Origin: a virus | Length of the DNA stretch: 64,000 nt | Reading direction: 5' to 3' (one strand) | Virus record (IMG/VR): IMGVR_UViG_3300044733_003647 | Location: 64,001-128,000 of that record | Translations under genes and position numbers: made by a program | The notes under the pieces: model-generated | The model's input: the letters and a program-made list of their open reading frames with translations, nothing else | The model's database searches: none | Told to the model about the DNA's origin: nothing | In this document: one piece after another, positions 2 to 62,683 of the stretch | Numbering within the stretch: the first letter of the stretch is position 1 | Layout: each line of letters starts with the position of its first letter

Positions 2-667
2 AGTAATCTTTCCAGTGGTACTGTTCCTCTCGCTAGACTGAGTGGCATCACAACCACACAATTGAGTGCTAGTGCTGGTATTACGAATACACAGTTGTCA
101 AGTAGCACAATTTCTGGTGTTTCCTTGGGTGGAACTTTATCTTCACACTCAGCGGGAACATATTTGGTTGGTGATGTTTACAATGGCAGCACATCAAGAA
201 CATGGTCTGTTGATGCCACGACAACAGGTACCGCAAATAAAATTGCTGCAAGAGATGGTTCGGGTGACATATACGCAACAGTGTTCAGAGGTCTTGCAAC
301 TAGTGCCAACTACGCTGACTTGGCAGAAAAGTATTTGGCTGATCAAGAATATGAAGTTGGAACAGTTGTTGCTGTTGGTGGCGAAGCAGAAGTTACCGCT
401 GGTTCATATGGAGATAGAGCAATCGGAGTAGTATCTGCTCATCCTGCTTATATGATGAACAGTGAACTGGAAGGTGGAACTTATATTGCACTTAAAGGTA
501 GGGTTCCAGTGAAAGTATCTGGCACTGTGCGTAAAGGACAACGTTTGGTTGCATATAACAACGGTACGGCTGTTGCAGCAGTGCCACATGCAAATGACGT
601 TTTCGCAATCGCACTAGAATCGAGTGATGATACTGGAGTAAAACTAATTGAAGCAGTGATTTTATAA
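2..667 (+). CDS. Tail fibre/spike protein, C-terminal part with peptidase G2-like intramolecular chaperone/autocleavage domain (5' truncated by window)
   Basis: Frame is open from base 2; ADLAEKY...GTVV...IGVVS..PAY.MN...ALKGRVPVKV motif typical of autocleaving C-terminal chaperone domains. Confidence 0.75.
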   Translation, partial: SNLSSGTVPLARLSGITTTQLSASAGITNTQLSSSTISGVSLGGTLSSHSAGTYLVGDVYNGSTSRTWSVDATTTGTANKIAARDGSGDIYATVFRGLATSANYADLAEKYLADQEYEVGTVVAVGGEAEVTAGSYGDRAIGVVSAHPAYMMNSELEGGTYIALKGRVPVKVSGTVRKGQRLVAYNNGTAVAAVPHANDVFAIALESSDDTGVKLIEAVIL

Positions 668-749
668 ATTTCGAAATCCTGAGATCCGGCCCGAAAAAAA
701 TCGCCGCGCATCTCAGGTTCCGAAAAGTCATTTTTACTTTTTGATTGTT

Positions 750-1265
750 ATGATTACACTAGATGAGTTTGAAAACTTCTTACACACCGATTTGGTATAT
801 GAACAGAAAATAATCTCTGTCATTGATGATCAATCGCGTCAAATATTTCTGGATGGAATTGGTGAACTATATAAACATACAGGCAGCACCATAAAACTGG
901 AACAAATGGAAAAATACAGTCAAAGTATTTTTCAGAAATGCCAGAACCTTAGAAAAAAATACTCACATAATGGTCCGGTAACTTGTCATGCATTTCTGGC
1001 ATTCAAAGGTTCCAAAAGTTTTGGTTTGCATATAGATCCGGATGATGTTATAATTGAATGTATTTTCGGCTCAAAAACTCTGTTTGTTAATGATGTGAAA
1101 AATGTATTGAAAAGTGGTGACTGTATCTATATACCAGCCAACACACCACATGAGATCATTAATGAAGACAAGTCTTTGATATTGAGTTTTGGATTAGAAA
1201 AATTTTATGTTGAAAAGATAAATCATGGACTTAATGTTCTATTTGAAGACGACGGAAACTTGTAA
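750..1265 (+). CDS. JmjC/cupin-4-like Fe(II)/2OG oxygenase
   Basis: SFGLHIDPDDV...GSKT...LKSGDCIYIPANTPH gives an HxD...H triad; ATG at 750. Confidence 0.75.
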   Translation: MITLDEFENFLHTDLVYEQKIISVIDDQSRQIFLDGIGELYKHTGSTIKLEQMEKYSQSIFQKCQNLRKKYSHNGPVTCHAFLAFKGSKSFGLHIDPDDVIIECIFGSKTLFVNDVKNVLKSGDCIYIPANTPHEIINEDKSLILSFGLEKFYVEKINHGLNVLFEDDGNL

Positions 1266-2280
1266 CTTAAACTGTTTACATTGTTTTACCAGTGGTTCCA
1301 AAGGCGCAAAGATATATTGGAATCACATCAAGGTTGCCGACTGGTTACACAGAATGGCAGCACAAACACAATATGCACCACACGTTCACTTTGAATTTCA
1401 TGGTGGCGAACCATTCTTGGCAGATATATCTTCTATGCAGTATGTGTATGACAATTGCCAGAACTTATGGAAAAGTCAAAGTTGGGGCATCACAACCAAT
1501 CTGGCTTTCAAACTAGACCAAGAAAAAATAGACTTCATTATGGGTCCATTGGGTGGCAGAGTCGGTACCAGTTGGGATCCAGATATTCGATTTGCAAATC
1601 CTAAACAGTATGATCTGTGGAGAAAGAATGTGCAGACACTGATTGATATGGGTGTCGTTGTGAAACTATTCATCAGTGTAACTAAAGGCACGATTGCAAT
1701 TGAACCTATCGAACTACTAGAGTGGGTCAGATCACTCGGTGTCAAAGAACTGGCACTAGAAAGACTGACGATGAACGGCAGTGCCAAACAAAACCTACAT
1801 ATATTTCCCACAAATGTGGAACAGGACGAATGGTTTCTGAAGATGCACCATCAGAGTGAAGAACATGGTGCAAGAGGTTGGTTTGATAATGAATTTCTGG
1901 AAACGGTGTACAATAAATTCGAAACGGGTTTCACCGCAGGCGGAACATTCTGTAGAGATTGTGAAGAGAAGTTATTCACACTAAATGCGGATGGAACCAT
2001 ATCTGGATGCCCAAATTCTGCACCGGAGTTTCAATTTGGCACGATAGATGATGATATAGAAAGCCTTATAAATAGTCCAACCAGATTGGAAAACATTGCA
2101 TGTGAAAGGTCTAGGGATCCTAGATGTTATTCGTGTGATGTATTTGAATATTGTGGCGGAGATTGTCATCAACTAGAATGGGAAAATGATGTGTGTGGTG
2201 CACCAAAAAGTTTGATGAGATTCTTAAAAAGCAATCAAAAAAGAAAAGTATGGATATTAAAAGATGGCAACATTAACTAA
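1225..2280 (+). CDS. Radical SAM/SPASM domain protein 1
   Basis: CNLNCLHC, FHGGEPF; C-terminal CRDC...ISGCP...CYSCDVFEYCGGDC...C. Confidence 0.92.
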   Translation: MDLMFYLKTTETCNLNCLHCFTSGSKGAKIYWNHIKVADWLHRMAAQTQYAPHVHFEFHGGEPFLADISSMQYVYDNCQNLWKSQSWGITTNLAFKLDQEKIDFIMGPLGGRVGTSWDPDIRFANPKQYDLWRKNVQTLIDMGVVVKLFISVTKGTIAIEPIELLEWVRSLGVKELALERLTMNGSAKQNLHIFPTNVEQDEWFLKMHHQSEEHGARGWFDNEFLETVYNKFETGFTAGGTFCRDCEEKLFTLNADGTISGCPNSAPEFQFGTIDDDIESLINSPTRLENIACERSRDPRCYSCDVFEYCGGDCHQLEWENDVCGAPKSLMRFLKSNQKRKVWILKDGNIN

Positions 2281-2836
2281 CCCTATAAGAACACAAAACA
2301 TCGTTGATAGATTTGCAGATTACGTAACCGCAACATCAGCTTCAGGTATTTCATGGGGCACAAACGCATATCCATTTGCAGAATTTGATGGTGGATATTT
2401 TGGTGGTTCAACTAGTGGAAGAGCAATAGGCATAAATGGAGGAAGTATTGGTTCTTCCGGCACAAGAATTACAGCATCAAATATTTACAATACACTTGTG
2501 AATGAAACTGCGGCATACACTTCAATCAGGAACTTACGTGCGATATTGTTTGTCGATGGCGCCGGTGGCAACACCGGTTCACGCCCAACACCCGGTGTTA
2601 TTTACGACCAAACAGCTGTTGCGTACATGAACGGTAGTTATCTTCAAAGCATTGGTACACCAGCAAATAATGGTGTAGCTTCCGGAAATGTCGCGTCTGC
2701 CACAAATCTAGAATCATTCTTTAACACATTAAGAAGTACATATAATAGTGCAAGAGGAAGTACAGTGACTATACAAGTTAACGTCTGTCATGCTTCTTGC
2801 CATTCGTCATGCCATGGTTCGCGTTCTAGGAGATAA
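2264..2836 (+). CDS. 190-aa G/S/T/N/A-rich protein with C-terminal (CHxS)3-RSRR tail; candidate substrate of the cluster
   Basis: Ends VCHASCHSSCHGSRSRR; no Cys or His elsewhere; overlaps the rSAM1 stop. Confidence 0.8.
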   Translation: MATLTNPIRTQNIVDRFADYVTATSASGISWGTNAYPFAEFDGGYFGGSTSGRAIGINGGSIGSSGTRITASNIYNTLVNETAAYTSIRNLRAILFVDGAGGNTGSRPTPGVIYDQTAVAYMNGSYLQSIGTPANNGVASGNVASATNLESFFNTLRSTYNSARGSTVTIQVNVCHASCHSSCHGSRSRR

Positions 2837-2838
2837 TA

Positions 2839-3558
2839 ATGAATGTCGTTGAAACAACTGCGCCAGTATCTATTGATAATTTAAAAAAATATTTCACAGA
2901 CAAAACAACTTTTTTTGTTATCAACTATAAAGACAGTACCTTAAAAGGTTCAAAACTTTTGACATATATTTCCAACCTGGACATACCATGTGATATCTCT
3001 TTTAAAGATTGTTCGAATGAAGAATGCTTTGAAATGATCAAAGATTACTTGAATACATCCATGATTGTTAATGTTCCATCTTTAGAAAGTTCTACGATTG
3101 CAATTCTTCATCAAGCAAAAGGATTGATACCGCCGATTGATAAAGAATTCATTGAACAGAATAGAGAAATTTTGAATAAATGGATATCTAAACTGGAAAG
3201 TTTGACTCTTTATAATATGCATATCATCAAAGATGATGCATTTAAACAGTTCGTTGATAGTTTTCCGGTTGATGATACAAAAGAAATGAACGGAGTTAAT
3301 TTCATAAGTCTGTTAAAACACAAAAATTTATATTCGTTCTTTCAGAACACAAATCAAAACAGTTTAAAATTTTATTCACACTATTTTAATGAGTACGTTT
3401 TTAAAGGTAAGAATTTATTTTCTTACTGGGCAAACGAAAACAATCCTTTATTTTTGCTTACATATGGTATCGCTGAAGGGCTGGTTAAAGAAAATGAATA
3501 CGTTGAAATGAAAAATAAAACTATTCAGGAGTTTAAAGATGTTTCATCTGTTCAATAA
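2839..3558 (+). CDS. Hypothetical protein (rSAM cluster)
   Basis: 239-aa ORF coupled to both neighbours. Confidence 0.75.
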   Translation: MNVVETTAPVSIDNLKKYFTDKTTFFVINYKDSTLKGSKLLTYISNLDIPCDISFKDCSNEECFEMIKDYLNTSMIVNVPSLESSTIAILHQAKGLIPPIDKEFIEQNREILNKWISKLESLTLYNMHIIKDDAFKQFVDSFPVDDTKEMNGVNFISLLKHKNLYSFFQNTNQNSLKFYSHYFNEYVFKGKNLFSYWANENNPLFLLTYGIAEGLVKENEYVEMKNKTIQEFKDVSSVQ

Positions 3559-4576
3559 AGTTTATATCGTTTCAGATAGTTTGATTGATATAAACTTTGA
3601 TAGAGTGGTGCTATCGGAGAAGTATGGAATTAAAATGTCCGAACAATTGGACAAAGTTTCATATGGTGAGTTATTAATGTATGCAGACAAATTTGCAAAT
3701 CTGGGAAAATCTTTCGATAATTTTGTAAAAGCACTACACGATCATAGTTCAAAAACAAACAAAAGTGTTTTGGTGTATGTTGATGACAAAAATTTTATCG
3801 AATTGACAAGTAATTGGTTAATTAGACTATTCAAAAATATGGATGCAAGCACTGCTTGGTTCGTTGTTGATTCTTATCTAAAGAAAACGAAGAAAAGCCA
3901 ATCTTGGAGAAATAATCACTCTTCTTCACAAGTAGAAATATACAAAGATGTGAGTGAAACAGAATTCAAAAAAGTATTTGGTGGTCTTACTATTGACAAA
4001 GTTGATGCAGTGTATACCACAATCAGAGAACAGATAAGTTTAGAATTTTTAGTCGCGTCTTATAAACATGATGGTTCAAACTTACCACAATTAATTGTTT
4101 CTTTAGAAAAAATTCTAAAAAGAACACTACAAGAAATATTGTTGGAGATAAAACACACTGTGTATAAGAACCAACATAAACCCAACTTTAATATTCCATT
4201 CGATGAAACATTTTTTGGCAATTCAACACTGTATAAATCTGAACTACTTGGTAAAGTTGGTGAAGCATCGAATGTTGATATCATAAATTCTTCCGAAGAA
4301 GACATTAAGAAATTCAAAGATATAGCCAAACAAGTCTATATGAATTGGGATAAATTCTCTGAGAATTCTCCCATCATCAAGAAACTGGACTTGCTTGATC
4401 TGCTGCGCGGCGGCTTAACAAAAGAAGAAGTCGATAAAGTTTTACAGATGGAAAAAGAAGATACATCGAACAGTAGAGTTTATCCATCTAGCGACGAAGA
4501 ACACATCAACATCTACTTGTTGGATCATGTATTAAATCAAAACTCGGAACAATTGAAATCATATCAACTTAGATGA
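3539..4576 (+). CDS. Hypothetical protein (rSAM cluster)
   Basis: 345-aa ORF, AGGAG SD upstream, overlaps neighbours. Confidence 0.75.
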   Translation: MFHLFNKVYIVSDSLIDINFDRVVLSEKYGIKMSEQLDKVSYGELLMYADKFANLGKSFDNFVKALHDHSSKTNKSVLVYVDDKNFIELTSNWLIRLFKNMDASTAWFVVDSYLKKTKKSQSWRNNHSSSQVEIYKDVSETEFKKVFGGLTIDKVDAVYTTIREQISLEFLVASYKHDGSNLPQLIVSLEKILKRTLQEILLEIKHTVYKNQHKPNFNIPFDETFFGNSTLYKSELLGKVGEASNVDIINSSEEDIKKFKDIAKQVYMNWDKFSENSPIIKKLDLLDLLRGGLTKEEVDKVLQMEKEDTSNSRVYPSSDEEHINIYLLDHVLNQNSEQLKSYQLR

Positions 4577-5202
4577 AACAAAATGATTATTATGATTTAG
4601 GTTTTTTTCAATCGAATGTACCTGATGATATCTTGAAATTACTTTGGTCGGAAGTTTATCTGACTGAGTGGATGAATGATTCGGAAGAGGGTATCTACAA
4701 ACAAATACCTTCTTGGTACAAAAAGAAAAACAAATATGAATTGAAGAAAGATGGTTCAAATAGATCCGAATATGAACGTCTGATTGGAAAAGAAGTTTTC
4801 GAAAAGACTCCGATCACACTGATAAAAATTGGCAATAAACTTATAGAGAATGATCAATTTGATTTTTTCAGAACTTACTACAAATCACACGAATTAAAAT
4901 ACATTGATCTCTGGAATGGTTCAGAGAGTATAGATTACCATTTCGATACGATAAATGGATGTGACACGCTCATTCTGATTTATCTTACAGACTCCGAAAA
5001 GTGGTCGAGTGAATGGGGCGGTTCTATAACCATGAAGAAACAAGTCGGCAACATTTGTCATTATGAACAAAAAATTCTTCCTAATAATGGAACTATGTTG
5101 GTTATAAACAATGCAAACCCACTTGTCATGCACAAGGTAGAAAAACTTCATAACACATCAATAAATAGATACACCTTCTCTTTTATTTACAAGTGGTTTT
5201 AA
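4573..5202 (+). CDS. 2OG-Fe(II) oxygenase
   Basis: YHFD...LILIYL...WGG...MHKV...RYTF (HxD...H...R); ATGA overlap. Confidence 0.85.
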   Translation: MKQNDYYDLGFFQSNVPDDILKLLWSEVYLTEWMNDSEEGIYKQIPSWYKKKNKYELKKDGSNRSEYERLIGKEVFEKTPITLIKIGNKLIENDQFDFFRTYYKSHELKYIDLWNGSESIDYHFDTINGCDTLILIYLTDSEKWSSEWGGSITMKKQVGNICHYEQKILPNNGTMLVINNANPLVMHKVEKLHNTSINRYTFSFIYKWF

Positions 5203-5203
5203 A

Positions 5204-6223
5204 TTGATAGCTGAACATGTATTGAATATACACAATAAGAGACCAGATACTGGTGAAATTATTGTAACACTGTTTGAATATTGTGATCTGAGTTGTTTAT
5301 TCTGCAACCAAGACCACGATAGCTATGAGGGTATCGATACAATAGTTGGTAAATTTGACTCAATTAAATTGTCAATTGACCAGCAAATAAAAAAAGGCAA
5401 AAAGCAAATCTCCATACACATGATGGGTGGAGAATTATTCTCGGATACAGTAGAAGATAAAGTATTCGACGACTACGCCGAACTCACCAAGAAATTACTG
5501 GCATACGGCAAAGAAATAAACATACCTTTAGAAGTTTCTTTCATTACCAACTTTATATGGGAAAAGAAACAAAGAATAAAGAAATTTCTGGACGATAACG
5601 AAATATCGGTTATGACTAGTTATGACCCGTCAGGTAGATTCAACAAAAAAACTTTTGAAGTCTACAAAAAAAACATACAAGATTTTAAAGAATATATAAT
5701 CAGTGTCAACGTCATTATGACGAAGCCAAATATAGATAAATTCATGTCGGACAATGTACCGTTTTTTGATTACTTGTACGAAAACTTTCCAATCTATTTT
5801 GATTATTATGGACCAGGAAAAAACCATGAATTTCTAATGGCGAAAGACATTGAGATTCGTGACTTTATGAAGTACATGTTTGAGAACTGGAACAATTGTC
5901 ATCCGTTCAAAACATTTGCCAATAAAACCGCAAACAAAATGTCATGCATGGATACGCATACTGTTATGCCATCTGGAAAATGGGGTGGTTGTGGTTACTT
6001 TGAGAATTTGGAGAAAGTTATACCTATTAAAGTTGTGACTGAACAACAATGGTTTGATAGTTACAATTGTTACGAATGCGAACACCTACAAAGGTGTACT
6101 ATGGGGTGTTTTATGAGCAATCACGTGAAAGACATGAGAACTCAAGACACATGTTGGTTAAAAGAAGTCTATGACTATGTTGATTTAAAAGTTGGAAACG
6201 AAAATGATATTACCATTAATTGA
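5204..6223 (+). CDS. Radical SAM/SPASM-like protein 2
   Basis: CDLSCLFC, MGGE; C-terminal CMD...GGCG...CYECEHLQRCTMGC...C; TTG start. Confidence 0.88.
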   Translation: MIAEHVLNIHNKRPDTGEIIVTLFEYCDLSCLFCNQDHDSYEGIDTIVGKFDSIKLSIDQQIKKGKKQISIHMMGGELFSDTVEDKVFDDYAELTKKLLAYGKEINIPLEVSFITNFIWEKKQRIKKFLDDNEISVMTSYDPSGRFNKKTFEVYKKNIQDFKEYIISVNVIMTKPNIDKFMSDNVPFFDYLYENFPIYFDYYGPGKNHEFLMAKDIEIRDFMKYMFENWNNCHPFKTFANKTANKMSCMDTHTVMPSGKWGGCGYFENLEKVIPIKVVTEQQWFDSYNCYECEHLQRCTMGCFMSNHVKDMRTQDTCWLKEVYDYVDLKVGNENDITIN

Positions 6224-7304
6224 ATTAAACAAAGATTTCATTGCCTCGGAGGCAATTCATTACGTTCAAAGAACATATACAGATTTTAAATTTGAATATG
6301 ACTTGCTTCGCAGAGACATACACATGGTCATCGACATATTCATGGGTGAATTGCATGTGGAAGGTGGTGTTTACTCCTATGATATCGAAGAAGGTAAAGA
6401 TGATTCTTACTTTCAACTGAACAGATACAAAAGGTCGTTTACAGTTTTCAGAAATCATTCAGATGAAACAATAAACTGTATACAATACACGGCAAACTTA
6501 ATAAAAGATGTAATCACAAATAAAAAAATTCAACCAGTTTACAATACACAATTTGAACAACTGTATGATACTAAACAAAAATTCAATGAAGAAAAACTAG
6601 GTGAATTTGATACGATTTGTGGATTGATTGTTGCGAATTCTGCCGCAGGTTCAAACAGAAATTACCATATTGATTTCATTGAAGAATATTTCGATAAAGG
6701 TTTCGTTGTGACCAAAATTCCTCCTCATATTCACGAAAGATTATGGGAAGAAGTCAGAAATACCAAATGGATCGATGCAAAGAAATCAACTTACAAAAAA
6801 GTTCCAGACTGGTATCACGAAAACGAAAAACATTATGTTGATCCTACCGGATATGATAGACCATCTTACGAAAGAAAAATTGGTGCAGACATTTTCACAA
6901 ATGCACCAAAGAGTTTAATTGATATTTCGGATGATCTGATCAAAGATGATACATTCTCACCTTTAAGGATGTATAGACCACCAAATGCCATCACAAAGTA
7001 TCTTCATTTCTGGAATGGCAGTGAGAATTCACCACATCACGTTGATGCAATCGATGGTTCTGACCTAATGGTTTTCTGTTATCTGACAGAAGAAAAGGAC
7101 TGGAAAGAAGAGTGGGGTGGTTACATTAATATTATGAAAGAAGTGAATTCAGAAATAACAAACACCAAAACCATTTTACCAAACGATGGTGTCATGGTAT
7201 TGGTAAACAATTCTGCACCAATCTTCAAACATGGCATTCGGAACTTAATCAAACGCGACATTAATAGATACACATTCATCTTTCATTACACTTGGACATA
7301 TTGA
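6204..7304 (+). CDS. 2OG-Fe(II) oxygenase with N-terminal extension (paralogue of 4573..5202)
   Basis: WNGSE..HHVDAIDGSD...WGG...FKHG...RYTF; ATG at 6204. Confidence 0.85.
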   Translation: MILPLIELNKDFIASEAIHYVQRTYTDFKFEYDLLRRDIHMVIDIFMGELHVEGGVYSYDIEEGKDDSYFQLNRYKRSFTVFRNHSDETINCIQYTANLIKDVITNKKIQPVYNTQFEQLYDTKQKFNEEKLGEFDTICGLIVANSAAGSNRNYHIDFIEEYFDKGFVVTKIPPHIHERLWEEVRNTKWIDAKKSTYKKVPDWYHENEKHYVDPTGYDRPSYERKIGADIFTNAPKSLIDISDDLIKDDTFSPLRMYRPPNAITKYLHFWNGSENSPHHVDAIDGSDLMVFCYLTEEKDWKEEWGGYINIMKEVNSEITNTKTILPNDGVMVLVNNSAPIFKHGIRNLIKRDINRYTFIFHYTWTY

Positions 7305-7319
7305 ATCTAAAATTTTGTC

Positions 7320-8390
7320 ATGGAATTAATTATTAAACCCACTGAAAAGTGTAACTTCAAGTGTACCTTTTGTTCAAGTACGCACATCACCGATGATAAG
7401 ACAGCGGAGTTGGATCACGAATATATCTTTAAGTTTTTAAAGAGATATCCAGAAACAAATACCATAATTGTTAATGGTGGCGATCCACTAATGATGAGCC
7501 CAGAATATTACTGGAAAATAATTGAACATCTGAATGAAATTGGTAGTGATGCTCGCATATCATTTACCAGTAATCTATGGCCATTCTATAAGAATCCCAA
7601 AAAATGGACCGAACTGTTTACGCATCCTCGCATGGGTATTACAACCAGTTTCCAATATGGTGGTGGTAGACTCAAAGGTGACTTGACAGAGTTCAGTGAA
7701 GAAGACTTCTGGAACGTCAGTGATATGATGCTGGACGTTGTTGGTTATCGCCCGGACTTCATAAGTGTTATCACTAAGGAGAATGAACATCTAGCCATCA
7801 AGAACGTTGAACTGGCCAAGGAAATGGATGTGGAATGTAAATTGAACTATGCGTTCAGTAGTGGACCTCCGGTAAAATTTAAAAACATTACCATGGGCCA
7901 ACAAGGGCAACCATATTTACTGGCATATATGTATAAAATATATGTTGAAATATGGAAAAAAGATTTGACAAAGTGGGAATATAACACAAAACAGATGGTA
8001 AAAAGACTGGTTGGTCATGCAACCACTTGCCCACAAAATAGAAACTGTGATGCAAACATCCGAACATTACAACCTAGTGGTGACTATTATAGTTGCGGTG
8101 CATTTGGTGACGATAAACTTTATCAAATAGATTTCGAAAAAGAAATGTCAGGTGAAAAAATATTTCCTTTGAGATTTCAACCAGAAATACAGAGCCTTAA
8201 AAGTTCTTGTTTCACTTGCCCAATGTTTCAAATTTGTAATGGTTGCAAGAAAACAATCAAAGATTTAAAAGACCATGACTTGGTGGAAGAACACTGTTCT
8301 AAAATGAAACTGTTGGCACCAGATATTATCGAGTCAAATGGAATGACAGGTATTCTGGAGCCTACACCGTATGTTAGAGAATACCCATGA
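7320..8390 (+). CDS. Radical SAM/SPASM domain protein 3
   Basis: KPTEKCNFKCTFC, NGGDPL; CPQNRNC...YSCG...CFTCPMFQICNGC...HC. Confidence 0.92.
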   Translation: MELIIKPTEKCNFKCTFCSSTHITDDKTAELDHEYIFKFLKRYPETNTIIVNGGDPLMMSPEYYWKIIEHLNEIGSDARISFTSNLWPFYKNPKKWTELFTHPRMGITTSFQYGGGRLKGDLTEFSEEDFWNVSDMMLDVVGYRPDFISVITKENEHLAIKNVELAKEMDVECKLNYAFSSGPPVKFKNITMGQQGQPYLLAYMYKIYVEIWKKDLTKWEYNTKQMVKRLVGHATTCPQNRNCDANIRTLQPSGDYYSCGAFGDDKLYQIDFEKEMSGEKIFPLRFQPEIQSLKSSCFTCPMFQICNGCKKTIKDLKDHDLVEEHCSKMKLLAPDIIESNGMTGILEPTPYVREYP

Positions 8391-9295
8391 ATGTTTCTAT
8401 TAATCCCAGTTACTTCTGTAACTTCAGATGTGACTTTTGTTATCTGACGGAAGAACAGTTGTCTGACCAGAAGAAAATAGAATTAGAAAAACTAGATGAT
8501 TTGTTATCACAGATACCAAACATAGAACATGTTGATTTGTATGGTGGTGAAATTGGTACATTAAAGAAAGACTACTTTTATGGATTGAGAGACACGATTC
8601 GCAAACACTATAGTGGCAAAATCAATATCAATACCAACTATTCAATGTTGCATGAAGGTTTTTATGAAGATGATTTCTACCTGAGTGTTAGTTACGATTG
8701 GGTAGCCAGAGAAAAGTCAGACAGAGTTTATCAGAACATGTTGATGAGCCCAGTACCCATAGCCGTACTGGTCTTGGCTAGCCCCAAAGTATTACAGATG
8801 GATGTAGATGATTTTATATTATCGATGAACATGTGTAGTAGTGTGAGAAGTGTGGAAATAAAACCTTACAGCACCAACCAGGCAAATCAACATCCCGTCA
8901 CACACAAAGACTTTGAGGAGTTTGTTAAAAAGTGGATCGAAAGCCCGTTACAAAAAAACTTTGAATTCATTAACGAATATTATATTGAAGATGTTCTGAA
9001 TGGTAACCGAAATGCATTCAGTGATGACCACATCTACATCACACCAAATGGTAAATTTGCTGTACTGGAATTCGATTTAAATGACAATGAATATTTTTTG
9101 GAACTGGATAGTTGGGAAGACTACCTTAAATGGACACAAAAAGAAAAACGAAACAACGTTAGTGATATCTGTAGAAGTTGTGAGTTTTATGGTAAATGCC
9201 TGACAGAACACTATCGTTACGTCAAGGATCTAAATAATAGTTGCAATGGTTATAAATTTTTAATAGAGTGGTATCGTGAAAGACTGGAAAATTAG
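8387..9295 (+). CDS. Radical SAM protein 4 (partial SPASM)
   Basis: CNFRCDFC, YGGE; C-terminal CRSCEFYGKC...SC; ATGA overlap. Confidence 0.88.
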   Translation: MNVSINPSYFCNFRCDFCYLTEEQLSDQKKIELEKLDDLLSQIPNIEHVDLYGGEIGTLKKDYFYGLRDTIRKHYSGKININTNYSMLHEGFYEDDFYLSVSYDWVAREKSDRVYQNMLMSPVPIAVLVLASPKVLQMDVDDFILSMNMCSSVRSVEIKPYSTNQANQHPVTHKDFEEFVKKWIESPLQKNFEFINEYYIEDVLNGNRNAFSDDHIYITPNGKFAVLEFDLNDNEYFLELDSWEDYLKWTQKEKRNNVSDICRSCEFYGKCLTEHYRYVKDLNNSCNGYKFLIEWYRERLEN

Positions 9296-9671
9296 ACAAG
9301 AAATTTATCATAGACTCAACACCGATTTCGATGATGATCTGAAAACCAAATCGGTTGAAATGTCAGATGATATTATTGGTAATGCTGTTCGTTATTTCAA
9401 TGATCGTAACATAGGATGGATATATCCAGCCAAAAGTTACATGGTCGGCATATGTTATGCACGATGGTTGTCTGAATATTTTGGTGGAGAACCACTAGAA
9501 TATTTGAAAGAACAGTCTCTTCTTTTCGACAACGACCCATACTATAAAAATTACGAACTGGATCAAAAAACATATGATGAAATTCTGAGTAAGATCAATC
9601 ACTGGAACTTTGAAGAAAAGGGTTTGGTGCCAGATGTGAAAAAGTATTTTATGGAAGAGTTCATGTTATGA
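9276..9671 (+). CDS. Hypothetical protein (rSAM cluster)
   Basis: 131-aa ORF overlapping both neighbours. Confidence 0.7.
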   Translation: MKDWKIRQEIYHRLNTDFDDDLKTKSVEMSDDIIGNAVRYFNDRNIGWIYPAKSYMVGICYARWLSEYFGGEPLEYLKEQSLLFDNDPYYKNYELDQKTYDEILSKINHWNFEEKGLVPDVKKYFMEEFML

Positions 9672-10240
9672 TTCAGAATTTGTGGCCAACACCATTTCTG
9701 AAAACGGATTTTTCGGAAGAAATAAGAAATAATCTTCTCAGTCATTTTTTAACCAAATATGACATGTTCAATTCTTCAGGTGATTTAAGTAACATAAACA
9801 TATTCGACGATGAATCGGATATTATTTGTAAGTTTACTGATGAAGTTGTGTTATCACTTTTTGATACATTTCTGAAAGAGAGTTTGGGAAAAGAAATCTC
9901 AGATTGGAAAAGTCACAATCTAAAAGGCTGGTTGACTGGTTCCGGAAAAAACTACGCCTCAAATTTCCACAACCATAAGGGTGCGGCAGTATCATCCATC
10001 TTTTATATCTTGTGTGAAGAGATAGATGTTGGTGGTGATATTTACTTCACAGATCCGAGACAGAACTCAAATAGAGGTTATGATAATCAATTCTCAAAGT
10101 GGTTTGATAATCTATCTTTCACACCAAAGAGTGGTGATGCCGTGGTTTTTCCAAGTTTTCTATATCATTTTGTTGAAACTTATAGGGGAAACATCAGAAT
10201 AGCTATGCCAGTTGATCTGTTCCTCTATACAAATGAGTGA
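9668..10240 (+). CDS. Putative 2OG-Fe(II) oxygenase (TIGR02466-like phage family)
   Basis: LWPTP N-terminus, FHNH...SSIFY...FTDPR...PKSGDAVVFPSFLYHFV...RIAM. Confidence 0.85.
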   Translation: MIQNLWPTPFLKTDFSEEIRNNLLSHFLTKYDMFNSSGDLSNINIFDDESDIICKFTDEVVLSLFDTFLKESLGKEISDWKSHNLKGWLTGSGKNYASNFHNHKGAAVSSIFYILCEEIDVGGDIYFTDPRQNSNRGYDNQFSKWFDNLSFTPKSGDAVVFPSFLYHFVETYRGNIRIAMPVDLFLYTNE

Positions 10241-10324: not shown

Positions 10325-10666
10325 ATGGCAGCAGGATATCAAGAATTATTCATTGAGCAAGGCGCCGACTTCTCGACTTCTATCACCTTGGATGATGCAG
10401 ACAACGAACCTTTCGATTTAACTGGTTATCAAGCAAAAAGTCAGATAAAGAAGTCATACTATTCAAGTACCTCGGCAGCTCAATTCGTCATAACCATTCC
10501 CACACCAGTGAATGGTGTGTTAAGCATGTCTATAAGTGCAGCAAATACAGCAAACATATCTGCTGGAAGATATGTCTATGACGTTTTAATTAAAAATTCT
10601 AGTAACAATACCACTAGAGTTCTGGAAGGAATCGTTAATATTGTGCCACAAGTTACTAAATTTTAA
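10325..10666 (+). CDS. Small virion structural protein (baseplate/fibre-associated)
   Basis: IEQGADF...FDLTGY...QIKKSY...GRYVYDV...RVLEG pattern common in T4-like aquatic phages. Confidence 0.65.
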   Translation: MAAGYQELFIEQGADFSTSITLDDADNEPFDLTGYQAKSQIKKSYYSSTSAAQFVITIPTPVNGVLSMSISAANTANISAGRYVYDVLIKNSSNNTTRVLEGIVNIVPQVTKF

Positions 10667-21578: not shown

Positions 21579-24500
21579 ATGCCACTAACTAGAATTCAAC
21601 CGCAAGGTTTAGATAGCACTGGAACTTATACATTCAATGGTATTATAGCAAACACTGCTATTGTTGCTGGTAATGATATCTCTTCTGGTGGCGGACCTAA
21701 AATAACAAATATACAGGTAACCGATAGTTCATACAATGTATTGGATGATACATCTGTAAGTACATCTGGTGGTTACATTAAAATTACAGGCACAGGCTTT
21801 GCATCTGGTTGTCAAGTATTAATTAATAATACTCCAGTAACATCAGTAACTTTTGTAAGTGCGACAGAAGTTAGGGCACAAGTTCCTGCAACCTCGGCCG
21901 GAACATATGTTGTTTATTTGGTAAACAGCGATGGTGGCGTAGCAATACGGGTTAATGGTATTACATTTAGTGGCACACCTAATTGGGTAACATCAAGCAC
22001 ACTTCCAAATAGTGATCCGTTAGTATCCATTCAATTGAGTGCAACAAGTGATAGTGCAGTTGTATATTCATTGGCCGCAGGCAGCACTTTACCTACTGGT
22101 ATAACACTTTCAAGTGGTGGTTTGTTGAGTGGAACTGTAACAGGAACAGATCAAACAACTTATAATTTTACTATAAATGCAATTGACGCAGAGTTGCAAG
22201 ATAGCCCAAGAACATTTAGCATAACGATAACTTTTAGTGATTTAAACTTTCCTTATGTAACTACTTTGATTAGTGCAAACACTGCAACTTTGCCATACGA
22301 CAGTGATGCCAGTAATAATAATTTTGCAATAACACCAAATGGTGATGTTAGACCGAACGGCTTTAATCCATATACACCTGGCTACTATAGTAATTATTTT
22401 GATGGTACTGGTGATTATTTGACTGTTCCGAGTACATCAAGTTTATCTATGGGCACTGGTGATTTTTGTATTGAAATGTGGATTTACCCAACCGCATTGT
22501 CCGCTACATCACAAGTACTGTATGCAAATTTTTCTGCTGGCACCACTCAAATGGGTGTTTTTATTAGAAACACAAGCACCATTCGTTTTTCAAGTTGGGA
22601 TACTGCGTATTTGGATAGTGCTTCCGGAAGTATTGTAAATAATATATGGCATCATATTGTTGTTTGCAGGGCTACGACTACTACATCATTGTTTATAAAT
22701 GGTGTTAGGGCTGCAACTGCGACAGGTGCTTCAAATGATTTTTCATCCAGTTCTGCTTTTTCAATTGGTCGTAATCCAAATAATACTGAATTTTTTCCCG
22801 GTTACATATCTAATCTTCGGGTTATAAAAGGCAGCGCTCTATATAACCCTTCTAGCACTACAATTACAGTCCCGACGACACCATTGACTGCTATAGCCAA
22901 CACCAGCTTACTAACCTGCCAAAGTAATGGATTTATTGACAACAGCACAAACGCATTTACTATCACACGCAATGGTGACACACTGGTATCAGGATTTGAT
23001 CCGTTTGTACCCGACACCAGCTACGGTACCTATGGAAGCACTTACTTTGATGGCACTGGTGATTATCTAGCACCCGCAACTAATTCTGCTTTCGCATTTG
23101 GCACAGGCGATTTTACTTTTGAATGCTGGATTTATGCTACTACTGCTAATGATTCTCCAATTTATGAGAGCCGTTCAACAAACTCAACCACAGATGGATT
23201 TACTGTAACGGCATTTTCTTCAACTGTAATTAGAGTTTATACAACAGCAGTACTTGTTTCTGCTACCGTTTCTAACTATGTAAATACATGGACACATGTC
23301 GCATTTACACGACAGGGTAGCACCAACCGTTTATTTGTAAATGGTGTACTTGGTGCAACGGCAACAGCCGCTGACAACTTTAGTAATACTACTGCATTCA
23401 TTGGTGCAGGACGATACGCAAGTAGTAGTTTATCTGCTTACTTTACAGGATACATCTCTGATGCTAGGATAGTAAAAGGTACAGCAGTCTATACCTCAGC
23501 GTTTACTCCACCTACAACACCATTAACCGCAATAGCCAACACAAGTTTGTTGACCTGCCAAACCAATCAACCCGATAATAACAATATATTATTAGATTCC
23601 AGCACCAACAACTTCTTAATTACAAGAAACGGTAATACCACACAAGGCACATTTAGCCCATATGGTCCGTTATGGAGTAACTACTTTGATGGTACTGGTG
23701 ATTATTTAACAATTCCTTACAGTGCATCTATGGTTCAGTGGTGGGACACTGATTACACCATTGAAATGTGGGTGTATAATGTTACCAACTCACAAACATC
23801 TAATGGCTTTCCCCTTCAAGTTGCTTACGGACTCCCTGCCCAAGCTGATACTTATTGGTCATTCGGTACTCTTACTAATGGTACACTAATGTTCTATTAT
23901 TATAACGGAGGCGCAGTAACATCAGCAGTTAGTAGTGCTACAGTGCCTTTGAATACTTGGACGCATGTTGCGATGGTTTATACTAATTCAAGCACGACTC
24001 TTAAAGGTTACATTAACGGAGTTCAAGCATTTTCAGTATCAAAATCCGGCACGCCTCAGGGTCCTTCGGGGCAGACTGTAAACTTGGGGGCAGTACAATC
24101 TACAGGATACAATGGTTATATTTCAAATCTTCGTATAGTAAGAGGTACGGCAGTATATACCTCAGCATTTACTCCAAGTACTTCACCACTAACTGCCATA
24201 GCCAATACCAGTTTACTAACTTGCACAGATAATAGATTCGTAGACGATAGCCCAAACAATTTTACCATCACCCGTAACGGCGATGTTAGTGTACAAAGAT
24301 TTAGTCCTTTTAGTCCACAGACAGTCACTACTTTTTATAGTGGTTATTTTGATGGTACTGGAGATTGGCTAGTTACAACAACATCTCCTGCAACATTGTC
24401 TGGAAGTTTTACTATAGAAGGATGGGTTTATATAACATCTTTAGCAGCTGGCAGAAGCCTAGTGTGTGTAGGCGACGACAATACTTCAACTGGCGCCTTG

Positions 24501-26138
24501 TTTTTTGTAAACACATCTGGAAGATTAGCAATTTTTGGAAACGGTGGTAATATTTTAGTTGGTACTTCACAGACTGTGGCAGTAAATACTTGGAATCATA
24601 TTGCATTTGTTCGATCATCAGGTACAATAACAGCATATCTTAATGGAGTTGCAGATTCAACTACAGCATCTAACAGTACAGCATTTACAGGTGCAAACAG
24701 AATTGGTGGAGAATTATTTGCTGGAAATGCCGGTGGTACTATAATGTTGGGTTATATCTCTAACTATAGATTAGTAAATGGAACCGCAGTATATACCTCA
24801 GCATTCACTCCACCTACTCAACCATTAACTGCAATATCCGGTACAAGTTTACTAACATGTCAAAGTGCAACTTTTATAGACAATTCAACTAATAACTTTA
24901 CTATTACAGTTGCTGGTAACACCACACCAACAACAGTTGCACCATTTACACCCACAGCAACAACAGGAGTTGCTTACTCACCAAGTGTGTATGGTGGTAG
25001 TATGTATTTTGATGGTAGTGGAGACTATTTAACTGTTCCGCCCAGCACAACAACATATTTGTCTAATAGAGCATTCACCATTGAAGCATGGGTTTATCTC
25101 AATGCGAACTATGTAGTATTAGTATCTCGTCGAGCAGAGGTTTCAGCTCGTGGATTTTTCCTTACATATGGTAACATTACAGATAACAAATTCACTTTTT
25201 ATGCTGGTGATACTGATGGTGGTTTTTGGAATGTGCAGTTGACTTCAACAGATACTTTTTCTTTGAGACAATGGCACCATGTTGTAATAACTAGAAATTC
25301 CAGTAATGTATTCACTCTATGGGTCAATGGGGTATCTCAAGCAACTGGTACTGCTTCATTTACTATAGCAGATGACACAAGCAACTTGTTAATTGGTGCC
25401 ATAGACAGCGGAAATGCACCAATGAACGGATATATTTCCAATCTACGAATTATAACAGGTCAAGCACTTTACACCAGCAATTTTGCACCCCCTGTTAGTC
25501 CACTAATAGCAATTCAAAACAGTGTTTTACTGTTAAATGGTACCAGTGCAGGCGTTTATGACAGTTCTATGATGAACGATTATGAAACCGTGGGCAATAG
25601 TAACTTGGTAACAAGCATTAAAAAATACGGCAACAGTAGTTTATATTTTGATGGCACTGGGGATTATTTGGCTACAAACAGTACACTAATAACAAATTTT
25701 GGAGCAAGACCGTTTACTATAGAATCTTGGGTATATTTTAATTCTGTGTCAGGTACTCGATATATAATGTCAACTTATCAAGATTCAGGCACAGGCTGGG
25801 CCCTTGGTTTATTCAACTCAAAGTTTAATTTTTGGGCAACAGGAGACGGGGCAGATATTGTTGGCACAACCACTCCTGTTATTAACACATGGTATCACTT
25901 GGCAGTATCGGGCCAAACAGGATCAATAAAACTTTTTGTAAACGGAATTCAAGAAGGATCTACATATACTGGCGCAACAGCATTAAACTCTACATCCACT
26001 TTGCGTGTTGGCGACGGAGCAGGTGCCGCAGCCGGCCAAGCCTTAAACGGCTATCTAGACGATGTTCGTATCACCCGCGGTGCGGCCCGTTACACTGCAA
26101 ACTTTACCCCACCTAGCAGTCCCTTTATAACCAAATAA
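21579..26138 (+). CDS. Large adhesin: IPT/TIG and Ig-like domains plus about six LamG/concanavalin-like domains
   Basis: Repeated SxYFDGTGDYL...FTIE.W.Y...W.H.A..R...GYISNLR. Confidence 0.85.
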   Translation: MPLTRIQPQGLDSTGTYTFNGIIANTAIVAGNDISSGGGPKITNIQVTDSSYNVLDDTSVSTSGGYIKITGTGFASGCQVLINNTPVTSVTFVSATEVRAQVPATSAGTYVVYLVNSDGGVAIRVNGITFSGTPNWVTSSTLPNSDPLVSIQLSATSDSAVVYSLAAGSTLPTGITLSSGGLLSGTVTGTDQTTYNFTINAIDAELQDSPRTFSITITFSDLNFPYVTTLISANTATLPYDSDASNNNFAITPNGDVRPNGFNPYTPGYYSNYFDGTGDYLTVPSTSSLSMGTGDFCIEMWIYPTALSATSQVLYANFSAGTTQMGVFIRNTSTIRFSSWDTAYLDSASGSIVNNIWHHIVVCRATTTTSLFINGVRAATATGASNDFSSSSAFSIGRNPNNTEFFPGYISNLRVIKGSALYNPSSTTITVPTTPLTAIANTSLLTCQSNGFIDNSTNAFTITRNGDTLVSGFDPFVPDTSYGTYGSTYFDGTGDYLAPATNSAFAFGTGDFTFECWIYATTANDSPIYESRSTNSTTDGFTVTAFSSTVIRVYTTAVLVSATVSNYVNTWTHVAFTRQGSTNRLFVNGVLGATATAADNFSNTTAFIGAGRYASSSLSAYFTGYISDARIVKGTAVYTSAFTPPTTPLTAIANTSLLTCQTNQPDNNNILLDSSTNNFLITRNGNTTQGTFSPYGPLWSNYFDGTGDYLTIPYSASMVQWWDTDYTIEMWVYNVTNSQTSNGFPLQVAYGLPAQADTYWSFGTLTNGTLMFYYYNGGAVTSAVSSATVPLNTWTHVAMVYTNSSTTLKGYINGVQAFSVSKSGTPQGPSGQTVNLGAVQSTGYNGYISNLRIVRGTAVYTSAFTPSTSPLTAIANTSLLTCTDNRFVDDSPNNFTITRNGDVSVQRFSPFSPQTVTTFYSGYFDGTGDWLVTTTSPATLSGSFTIEGWVYITSLAAGRSLVCVGDDNTSTGALFFVNTSGRLAIFGNGGNILVGTSQTVAVNTWNHIAFVRSSGTITAYLNGVADSTTASNSTAFTGANRIGGELFAGNAGGTIMLGYISNYRLVNGTAVYTSAFTPPTQPLTAISGTSLLTCQSATFIDNSTNNFTITVAGNTTPTTVAPFTPTATTGVAYSPSVYGGSMYFDGSGDYLTVPPSTTTYLSNRAFTIEAWVYLNANYVVLVSRRAEVSARGFFLTYGNITDNKFTFYAGDTDGGFWNVQLTSTDTFSLRQWHHVVITRNSSNVFTLWVNGVSQATGTASFTIADDTSNLLIGAIDSGNAPMNGYISNLRIITGQALYTSNFAPPVSPLIAIQNSVLLLNGTSAGVYDSSMMNDYETVGNSNLVTSIKKYGNSSLYFDGTGDYLATNSTLITNFGARPFTIESWVYFNSVSGTRYIMSTYQDSGTGWALGLFNSKFNFWATGDGADIVGTTTPVINTWYHLAVSGQTGSIKLFVNGIQEGSTYTGATALNSTSTLRVGDGAGAAAGQALNGYLDDVRITRGAARYTANFTPPSSPFITK

Positions 26139-62553: not shown

Positions 62554-62607
62554 ACACTCGCCTTGACTTATGGCGTATAATAAGAAAAATAATAAGTCAT
62601 CTTTTTT

Positions 62608-62683
62608 GGGCTGATAGTGATACTGGGGTACACGCTGGTTTTGCAATCCAGAGATAGGAGTTCGATCCTCCTTCGGTCCACCA
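62608..62683 (+). tRNA. tRNA-Ala(TGC)
   Basis: Loop TTTGCAA; G3-U70 pair; CCA. Confidence 0.88.

Follow-up and report, generated by a model that had tools for sequence, protein, structure and literature searches.

A twelve-gene phage cassette with four radical SAM enzymes as a candidate maturation system for a Cys/His-tailed virion protein

Why does a phage keep four radical SAM enzymes and a set of oxygenases among the genes for its tail? The question is raised by a stretch of viral DNA of 64,000 nucleotides, referred to here in its entirety as the window (bases 64001-128000 of IMG/VR record IMGVR_UViG_3300044733_003647, a virus record of 156.7 kb that is ~94% complete). Near its start, 12 tightly packed open reading frames (ORFs) on the + strand (741/750-10240) encode a JmjC/cupin protein, four radical SAM (rSAM) enzymes, three 2-oxoglutarate (2OG) oxygenases, three unknown proteins and a 190-residue protein, P* (ORF3), which ends in a repeated Cys-His motif. 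The owner of these genes is a freshwater T4-like phage, in which the cassette, of up to 12 genes, takes up ~6% of the genome. The 12 genes probably constitute a single maturation cassette for a virion protein, with the tail of P* as the substrate.

All 12 ORFs, which the initial annotation had described as consecutive and overlapping or abutting, were found on the + strand (Table 1), with junctions that are either overlaps of 4-41 nt or gaps of 1-15 nt. Motif reading and family searches bore out every item of its gene inventory, and the operon does lie among tail genes, with a fibre gene before it and an LtfC-like fibre-assembly gene after it. That annotation had noted the lack of a transporter or protease gene, and no peptidase or transporter family was matched among the 12 ORFs. 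In scans, sigma-70-type promoter-like sites were no commoner than in shuffled sequence, terminator-like sites were only slightly commoner and the T4 late motif TATAAATA was not enriched, so that operon status rests on the gene packing.

The candidate substrate has CHASCHSSCHGSRSRR as its C-terminus and carries its sole Cys and His residues within the last 16 positions; its first 174 residues contain no Cys, His or Lys. The AlphaFold2 (AF2) model has a predicted local distance difference test (pLDDT) value of 84, with residues 177-190 below 50, and this predicted arrangement, a disordered tail on a confidently folded body, fits what is expected of an accessible core. The lack of Lys in the body was considered as a clue (for example, to avoidance of a reaction with an aldehyde product) and was dismissed as not general, Lys being absent from only seven of 150 representatives. 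Foldseek found no PDB match for the body at E<=1e-3, and the best Z score in a wide VIA-align search was 4.3; in the BFVD library of viral structures (E <= 0.001) all matches are uncharacterized phage proteins that belong to the P* family, including Atu_ph07 gp170.

No Pfam or NCBIfam family covers P*, no NCBIfam model matches its bacterial relatives, and tblastn of ORF3 against phage records gave no match; homologues in jumbo phages came to light by way of rSAM_A and synteny. The family comprises 806 clusters at 90% identity and 554 at 50%, the latter number from a profile search of 1.84 billion representatives, and three CH units with an RR end are present in 138 of the best 150 members. Among the 143 representatives ending in RR, the Cys and His residues are kept in 136-138 aligned tails, the arginines at positions -4, -2 and -1 are invariant, and the residue after each His is free, followed by Ser far more often than by Asn or Ala. 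The tail is conserved far more than the body, and its Cys and His residues are each encoded by either of their two codons, its Ser by AGY as well as TCN codons; since synonymous codons are used freely, the purifying selection acts on the tail peptide. The H-x-(S/N/A/D) pattern would fit the omega-x-X3 motif of triceptides, and the Cys, being invariant, would point to thioethers or a metal ligand as well. In one variant (P0255) Tyr replaces all three His (CYSD-CYVN-P-CYRS-RGRR) within a complete cassette that includes a B12-binding rSAM, a substitution that would fit an aromatic cross-linking role. A search across all 157 kb of the genome for a second CH..CH protein gave further matches only out of frame, in a fibre-gene repeat.

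Some members of the family depart from the usual architecture. One of 453 residues (P0152, L161:8001-9362) carries the P* body and tail behind a fused N-terminal Gly_rich_2 (PF21722) extension, further long forms span 276-319 residues, and some Bdellovibrionota tails (L140, L146) have four CHxS units rather than three.

A degenerate DNA pattern for the tail located at least 118 viral contigs and 32 genome contigs, and every ORF in these tail-bearing loci was assigned to its best family with profile hidden Markov models, one for each window ORF. The order cupin-A-P*-4-5-B-(ox)-C-(ox)-D-11-(ox5), in which A to D are the rSAM genes, is found on ~100 of the viral contigs; because it recurs on that many independent contigs, the cassette goes far beyond what chance would give. 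Where enough DNA is available, viral loci contain rSAM_A (65 of 85), rSAM_B (48 of 56) and rSAM_C (25 of 31), and orf4 is present in 82 of the 92 with enough downstream DNA. Co-occurrence of the enzymes with the CHxS protein, which the initial annotation had put forward as a check, is thus seen as a fixed order in viral contigs and also in Bdellovibrionota.

Megablast of the cassette against phage records gave no match. With tblastn, genes 47-50% identical to rSAM_A were found only in jumbo phages, namely Atu_ph07, Sinorhizobium Phosso, the Ralstonia RSL2/RSF1/FLC4 group, Burkholderia FLC6/FLC8/SURPRISE13 and a Pseudomonas phage. In Atu_ph07 the product of the gene that follows rSAM_A terminates in CHSSCHASCHNSRSRR, in RSL2 in CHSSCHTSCHGSRGRR, and both phages share with the window phage the order cupin, rSAM_A, P*, orf4, rSAM_B, rSAM_C, rSAM_D. 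Exceptions to the canonical order are mostly members of a divergent subclass with two tandem tailed proteins. Its loci comprise a large fibre gene, two tailed proteins of ~125-140 residues, an orf4-like gene and then rSAM genes that barely register in Pfam (viral loci L004:2523-3286, L025, L032, L037, L051, L056, L059, L068, L070, L072, L073, L080, L082, L084, L090, L110 and L116; genome contigs L131, L139 and L151).

The four rSAM enzymes are paralogous, yet each is individually conserved. Besides the rSAM_A genes already mentioned, orthologues of rSAM_B are 40% (Atu_ph07) and 30% (RSL2) identical, those of rSAM_C 60-64% in jumbo phages and 53-63% in Bdellovibrionota, and those of rSAM_D 45-56%. 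CxxxCxxC can be read directly near the N-terminus of ORF2, ORF7, ORF9 and ORF10, and all four match phrog_1802 with E values of 2e-32 to 7e-66 (8e-43 for ORF7). ORF9 passes the Pfam Radical_SAM model (PF04055; 41.2 against a cut-off of 29.5), with ORF10 (29.4), ORF7 (21.5) and ORF2 (20.8) below it. ORF2, ORF7 and ORF9 each show the whole seven-Cys SPASM pattern CX9-15GX4C ... CX2CX5CX3C ... C, of which ORF10 has CX2CX5C...C only. ORF2 passes the SPASM model TIGR04085 (35.0 against a cut-off of 27) and ORF9 narrowly misses it (25.7).

The leading curated matches of these enzymes are peptide or protein maturases (PapB, anSME, DynA, HxsB/C, cyclophane formers and QhpD). ORF2 matches PapB (1.3e-12) and anSME best in NCBIfam, then DynA and HxsB, and gives values of 1e-6 to 3e-9 with HxsB, AmcB, FxsB and YhhB; the best match of ORF9 is DynA, over its full length (3.9e-13), and ORF7 has weak matches to PapB and QhpD. 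A sequence search of the PDB with ORF2 and ORF9 returned anSME as the sole match (7.7e-5), over the N-terminal 70 residues. The scores lie far below the family cut-offs, and so none of the four belongs to a named family. As to whether the enzymes might group with nucleotide or cofactor modifiers, a check that had been proposed with the initial annotation, QueE and DNA-modification enzymes are not among the leading matches.

Two further observations concern the rSAM genes. The rSAM_D orthologue of Atu_ph07, gp164 (L002:15159-16064), aligns from L002:15159, while its annotated coding sequence begins at 15351; the start in the record was probably set too far downstream, which leaves the CxxxCxxC region unannotated. 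Some cassette variants contain an extra B12-binding radical SAM protein of 520-550 residues, of the class-B methylase type (L159:7033-8694 and L161:14420-15985), whose family assignment suggests additional C-methylation in those cassettes.

Of the oxygenases, ORF1 may start at TTG 741 or, as is likely, at ATG 750, and its orthologues lie upstream of rSAM_A in Atu_ph07, in RSL2 and in 53 of the 79 viral loci with enough upstream DNA. An HxD...H triad is readable in ORF1, ORF6 and ORF8; ORF6 is 39% identical to the C-terminal half of ORF8, which is likewise prolyl 4-hydroxylase (P4H)-like, and the position of ORF12 varies among loci. The unknown proteins ORF4, ORF5 and ORF11 have no Pfam or NCBIfam family. 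The AF2 model of orf4 (pLDDT 85) found no Foldseek match in the PDB, a best VIA Z score of 5.1 over 55 residues only and nothing reaching a template modelling (TM) score of 0.5 in an Atlas shape search; a Protein Atlas feature search with orf4 and orf5 gave no usable match. A predicted complex of orf4 with P* scored 0.00, which weighs neither way. Like orf4 beside P*, orf11 keeps its place, again following rSAM_D in phages and Bdellovibrionota.

Evidence that the candidate substrate belongs to the particle, as the initial annotation had thought probable of the protein to be modified, comes from Atu_ph07. Proteins of purified Atu_ph07 particles include gp170 (31.89 kDa, eight unique peptides, 35% coverage), and the homologues of the rSAM, cupin and orf4 proteins (gp165, 168, 169, 171 and 172) are not in the virion list (PMC6102473, Table S5 for gp170). 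The tailed protein of this phage has a computed mass of 31,894 Da, and its identification as gp170 is secure because this mass agrees and the neighbours gp176 and gp177 match by size. In the gel, gp170 was present in bands 1-9 and most abundant in band 1, where gp20 (127 kDa) and gp197 (87 kDa) also peak; Atu_ph07 proteins of 28-34 kDa peak in bands 7-8 (PMC6102473). Such migration fits a heat- and SDS-stable species of high mass.

The cassette likewise sits among virion genes, which encode baseplate and fibre proteins. When the final 260 residues of the upstream fibre were searched with phmmer, homologues turned up in ~70 of the viral loci with a tailed gene, as a rule shortly upstream of the cassette. 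Of the viral loci with enough upstream sequence, most have a fibre gene with a C-terminus of the intramolecular chaperone (IMC) type next to the cassette. The Atu_ph07 homologue of this fibre, gp176, is a virion protein. In the tandem subclass, the first tailed gene directly adjoins the fibre gene.

The cassette is also found outside phages. About 20 of the 32 tail-bearing genome contigs belong to metagenome-assembled genomes (MAGs) of Bdellovibrionota, on contigs of up to 1.29 Mb; the others look like phage contigs binned into MAGs. In Bdellovibrionota loci the tailed gene is surrounded by orthologues of A, orf4, B, C, D and orf11, and one Halobacteriovoraceae genome holds the full set, including the cupin and 2OG genes. 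In this genome, the one whose flanks were checked, the cassette is bordered by genes for acyl-CoA dehydrogenase, serine dehydratase, Mrp, YchF and PBP1; with housekeeping genes on both sides, it is therefore not a prophage. It adjoins a gene for a protein terminated by Peptidase_S74, and S74 homologues occur in five further genome loci. The S74 protein itself (L155:10765-12006, - strand) has a hydrophobic, prepilin-like N-terminus (…QAGISLVQVMISLAIMAI…), a sequence feature that may point to a fibre carried on a pilus or pseudopilus. In Bdellovibrio, the adhesins that recognize prey are S74-terminated, phage-like MAT fibres (PMC10769870).

Taken together, the initial proposal of a pathway resembling those of peptides that are made by the ribosome and modified after translation (RiPPs), repurposed for a phage protein, gains support from the maturase-type matches, the fixed co-occurrence, the lack of a protease or exporter and the presence of gp170 in virions. 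We infer the following scheme for the tail as substrate, its chemistry, its place in the virion and its role. P* would be a compact α/β body presenting a flexible 16-residue tail, (Cys-His-x-Ser)x3-Arg-x-Arg-Arg, in which the four rSAM enzymes would install covalent cross-links late in infection. These would most likely be three-residue macrocycles that join the His ring to the β-carbon two residues on (H-x-S), as in triceptides and dynobactin; thioethers from the three Cys of the tail might form also or instead, and the cupin and 2OG oxygenases would add hydroxylations. His-to-Cβ macrocycles, Cys thioethers or both, plus hydroxylation, are our best guess by analogy with these systems. The orf4, orf5 and orf11 proteins may act as non-virion helpers in substrate presentation or assembly. 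The product would not be exported but built into the particle, as a part of the surrounding fibre/baseplate apparatus or attached to it, where a rigid, basic, protease-resistant tail could lock P* into the fibre complex or contact the host surface. A role in adsorption or particle stability is likely because the cassette is kept beside host-recognition fibres.

A bolder version of this scheme, which we offer tentatively and regard as possible rather than probable, is that phages and Bdellovibrionota share a module in which P* bears a cross-linked, basic Cys/His 'claw' and is covalently or quasi-covalently integrated with fibres of the S74/IMC type, as one part of the apparatus for gripping or penetrating the target cell. 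Such integration would explain the migration of gp170 at the top of the gel.

Several points weigh against the proposed maturation. Modification has been observed for no member of the family, and the Atu_ph07 study did not look for it in gp170 (PMC6102473), whose top-band signal could reflect aggregation or an SDS-stable oligomer. The rSAM scores are 6- to 25-fold below the cut-offs of the named maturase families, so that the chemistry is not readable from homology, and the body of P* has no recognizable fold, its structural role being deduced only from its setting and a single proteome. In repeats 1 and 2 the fourth residue is sometimes other than Ser. O2-dependent oxygenases are unusual in one pathway with O2-sensitive rSAM enzymes, and P* of Bdellovibrionota has no obvious signal peptide, which is awkward for a surface-fibre role there.

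The same tail might be read as a metal site (Zn or Fe, possibly shared within a trimer), with the enzymes acting elsewhere, for example on the neighbouring fibre. Phage fibres are known to hold metal sites, for example the His-x-His iron sites of gp37, a fibre of T4; here the i, i+4, i+8 spacing would put Cys and His on adjacent faces of a helix such as the one that AF2 draws, at low confidence, for residues 176-184, and a fibre gene is a near-constant neighbour of the cassette. We nevertheless consider this unlikely: P* lies between rSAM_A and orf4 in almost every locus, the intact cassette with the all-His-to-Tyr variant is hard to reconcile with a metal site, no other repeated, conserved core-like motif exists among the proteins of this genome, and a terminal disordered repeat is typical of rSAM substrates.

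That P* is instead a long-leader precursor of a RiPP or cofactor, whose modified tail is cleaved and released as a bioactive peptide or redox cofactor in the style of pyrroloquinoline quinone (PQQ) or mycofactocin, is very unlikely. Genes for a protease, an exporter or immunity are absent from the cassette, the body of 175 residues is a conserved domain with a confidently predicted fold, body peptides of the homologue gp170 are present in purified virions, and the genes sit amid fibre and baseplate genes in phages and beside fibre-type genes in predators; these facts outweigh the placing of the core at the very C-terminal end, which precursors of mycofactocin and PQQ share, and the presence of several rSAM/SPASM enzymes with oxygenases, which is typical of RiPP clusters. 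It is highly improbable that the enzymes modify DNA, nucleotides or a small metabolite and that the tailed protein is an unrelated structural gene there by chance. The rSAM enzymes do have weak matches to MoaA, viperin, NrdG and QueE among many others, mainly over the N-terminal cluster-binding region and weaker than those to maturases, and 2OG-FeII_Oxy_5 genes are common as stand-alone genes of aquatic phages (phrog_81). However, SPASM domains point to peptide substrates, and P* is strictly co-inherited with the enzymes in T4-like phages, two jumbo-phage lineages and Bdellovibrionota. Maturation of the P* tail for the particle thus remains the preferred reading.

Table 1. Positions of the cassette genes and their flanking genes in the window.
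Feature	Position	Strand	Evidence
Tail fibre/spike, C-terminal 221 aa of a 1001-aa protein starting before the window	2..667	+	IMC/Peptidase_G2-like domain
ORF1, JmjC/cupin-type Fe(II) oxygenase	741..1265	+	JmjC_2 37.9 (cut-off 22), Cupin_2 33 bits, HID...H
rSAM_A (ORF2), radical SAM/SPASM, directly before P* gene	1225..2280	+	CNLNCLHC, full 7-Cys SPASM pattern
P* (ORF3), 190-aa candidate substrate, α/β body (1-175) and disordered tail	2264..2836	+	AF2, profile search
P* tail CHAS-CHSS-CHGS-RSRR, then stop codon	2786..2833	+	aligned representatives
orf4, conserved unknown, nearly always directly after P*	2839..3558	+	phrog_20767 E 2.8e-70
orf5, unknown, frequent cassette member	3539..4576	+	no family; in 47/71 loci
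ORF6, 2OG-Fe(II) oxygenase, P4H-like	4573..5202	+	2OG-FeII_Oxy_3 31.3 vs 27
rSAM_B (ORF7), radical SAM, SPASM-type Cys pattern	5204..6223	+	CDLSCLFC; CX10GX4C...CX2CX5CX3C...C
ORF8, 2OG-Fe(II) oxygenase, ~160-aa N-terminal extension	6192..7304	+	2OG-FeII_Oxy_3 28.4 vs 27, residues 278-364
rSAM_C (ORF9), radical SAM/SPASM, most conserved cassette enzyme	7320..8390	+	Radical_SAM 41.2 vs 29.5
rSAM_D (ORF10), radical SAM with one C-terminal Cys cluster	8387..9295	+	CNFRCDFC plus CX2CX5C...C
orf11, small conserved unknown after rSAM_D	9276..9671	+	phrog_20737 7e-48
ORF12, 2OG-Fe(II) oxygenase (Oxy_5 type), accessory at cassette end	9668..10240	+	PF13759 40.5 vs 27, phrog_81
LtfC-like fibre-assembly protein, first gene past the cassette	10325..10666	+	PF23926 30.2 vs 27, phrog_3304

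The phage that carries the cassette is uncultured, and its DNA recurs across many lake-water metagenomes. Its major capsid protein shares 63-66% identity with its counterparts in Pelagibacter and Methylophilales T4-like myophages, and its terminase, sheath, portal, clamp loader and related genes are of the T4 type. Upstream of the cassette lie a gp8-like gene and the genes for a 1695-residue DUF4815 baseplate protein and the 1001-residue fibre. The C-terminus of the fibre matches Pfam Peptidase_G2 weakly (E 2.9e-5, 24.0 bits against a cut-off of 25) and also matches tail-fibre phrogs; the complete fibre ORF spans L154:9662-12667. Within the fibre gene, upstream of the window, an identical 18-mer occurs twice, 132 nt apart (G000:C1:62465-62482 and 62597-62614), and hence the fibre shaft has an internal repeat of ~44 residues. 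The 73-nt gap after the fibre stop (667) holds an inverted repeat, CCTGAGAT…ATCTCAGG (680-718), which is a possible terminator or attenuator; the cassette may therefore own a separate promoter. Farther downstream, an ORF of 1519 residues (21579-26138) has six stretches that match many 'baseplate wedge / virion structural protein' phrogs and encodes a large structural protein with repeats, of a kind typical for T4-like phages from aquatic habitats.

The cassette is real and conserved, and apparently has not been described before. A full-text literature search found no paper that describes or interprets it; radical SAM is not mentioned in the Aravind survey of jumbo phages, and a cyanophage paper with an rSAM 'antibiotic' gene proved to be unrelated. 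The genome papers of FLC6 and SURPRISE13 give the cupin, rSAM and 2OG genes as annotations only (PMC8066314, PMC11898562) and leave them unlinked to each other, to the tailed protein and to the virion. The cassettes of FLC6, SURPRISE13, RSL2, RSF1 and Atu_ph07 are orthologous to that of the window, with the same order, the same tail and enzymes that are 30-64% identical, whereas the window version is fuller, with orf5, orf11 and three 2OG genes.

To our knowledge, the described targets of rSAM maturation are small secreted peptides, a few enzymes (sulfatases and QhpC) and, since 2026, the defence effector HxsA, and none has been reported from a virus particle. If the claw reading is true, the cassette would provide the first radical-SAM post-translational modification of a virion and a new Cys-His-x-Ser chemistry needing four dedicated rSAM enzymes. 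Four rSAM enzymes together with O2-dependent oxygenases, acting on an invariant Cys-His-x-Ser unit, would probably be new enzymology. The cassette reaches across three unrelated phage lineages and into the chromosomes of predatory bacteria, and its sharing by phages and predators ties phage fibres to Bdellovibrio adhesins of the MAT type. Carriers are available in culture (Atu_ph07, RSL2/RSF1, FLC6/FLC8 and SURPRISE13), and one virion proteome already contains the tailed protein.

Among known systems, a classical RiPP cluster is set apart from the cassette by the 190-residue folded precursor and by the lack of a leader peptidase or exporter, which place the cassette outside that definition. 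The thioether-forming rSAM-SPASM maturases PapB (of ranthipeptides) and QhpD, and likewise anSME, match enzymes of the cassette, PapB and anSME being the best NCBIfam matches of ORF2 and QhpD a weak one of ORF7; QhpD, whose target is the QhpC subunit, and anSME set a precedent for rSAM enzymes that modify Cys within a whole protein, and the last unit of the tail, C-H-(G/S/A)-S-R, loosely resembles the sulfatase motif C-x-(P/A)-x-R of anSME substrates. However, scores against the thioether maturases and anSME are 22-48 bits where the cut-offs are 340-453 (for the anSME model TIGR03942, 43.3 for ORF2 and 47.3 for ORF9 against 349). The cassette lacks a Cys-X3-Asp acceptor pattern and any partner of the sulfatase or amine-dehydrogenase kind, and it has four enzymes in place of one.

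With the triceptide/cyclophane systems (FxsB, GrrM/OscB, YhhB and AmcB) and with the dynobactin/darobactin maturases DynA and DarE, the cassette shares tandem motifs of the aromatic-x-X3 kind (H-x-S/N/A or Y-x-D/N/S) and SPASM rSAM enzymes; DynA cross-links His and Trp. Scores with the cyclophane-former models (FxsB, GrrM, YhhB and AmcB) are 18-30 bits against cut-offs of 310-445, and in contrast to the short peptides of those systems the substrate here is a folded, virion-type protein of 190 residues with an invariant Cys before every motif.

The nearest described system is the HXS antiphage system, in which HxsA, a 214-residue effector that has five basic HxS repeats, undergoes maturation by HxsB/HxsC together with HxsD and carries a change of +8 Da on SHRSS (PMC13128918). 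HxsA is a full-size substrate that combines a functional body with tandem His-x-Ser units rich in basic residues, which P*, as a candidate substrate with three H-x-S units, would parallel. Both systems have more than one rSAM enzyme, one of them of the SPASM type, with small proteins as helpers (putative ones in the cassette), and in both the product would be a functional protein and not a secreted small peptide. Against the HxsB model (TIGR03978, cut-off 370) ORF2 scores 36.0, and against the HxsC model (TIGR03977, cut-off 267.9) ORF9 scores 28.5 and ORF10 15.4, all well below the cut-offs. The units of the cassette differ from those of HxsA in having an invariant Cys before the His and in numbering exactly three, at the extreme C-terminus and followed by RxRR; P* has neither a peptidoglycan-binding domain nor an N-terminal processing signal, and the cassette employs four rSAM enzymes with a cupin and 2OG oxygenases. 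Finally, HXS is bacterial and serves defence, whereas the cassette described here is encoded by phages, within their fibre module.

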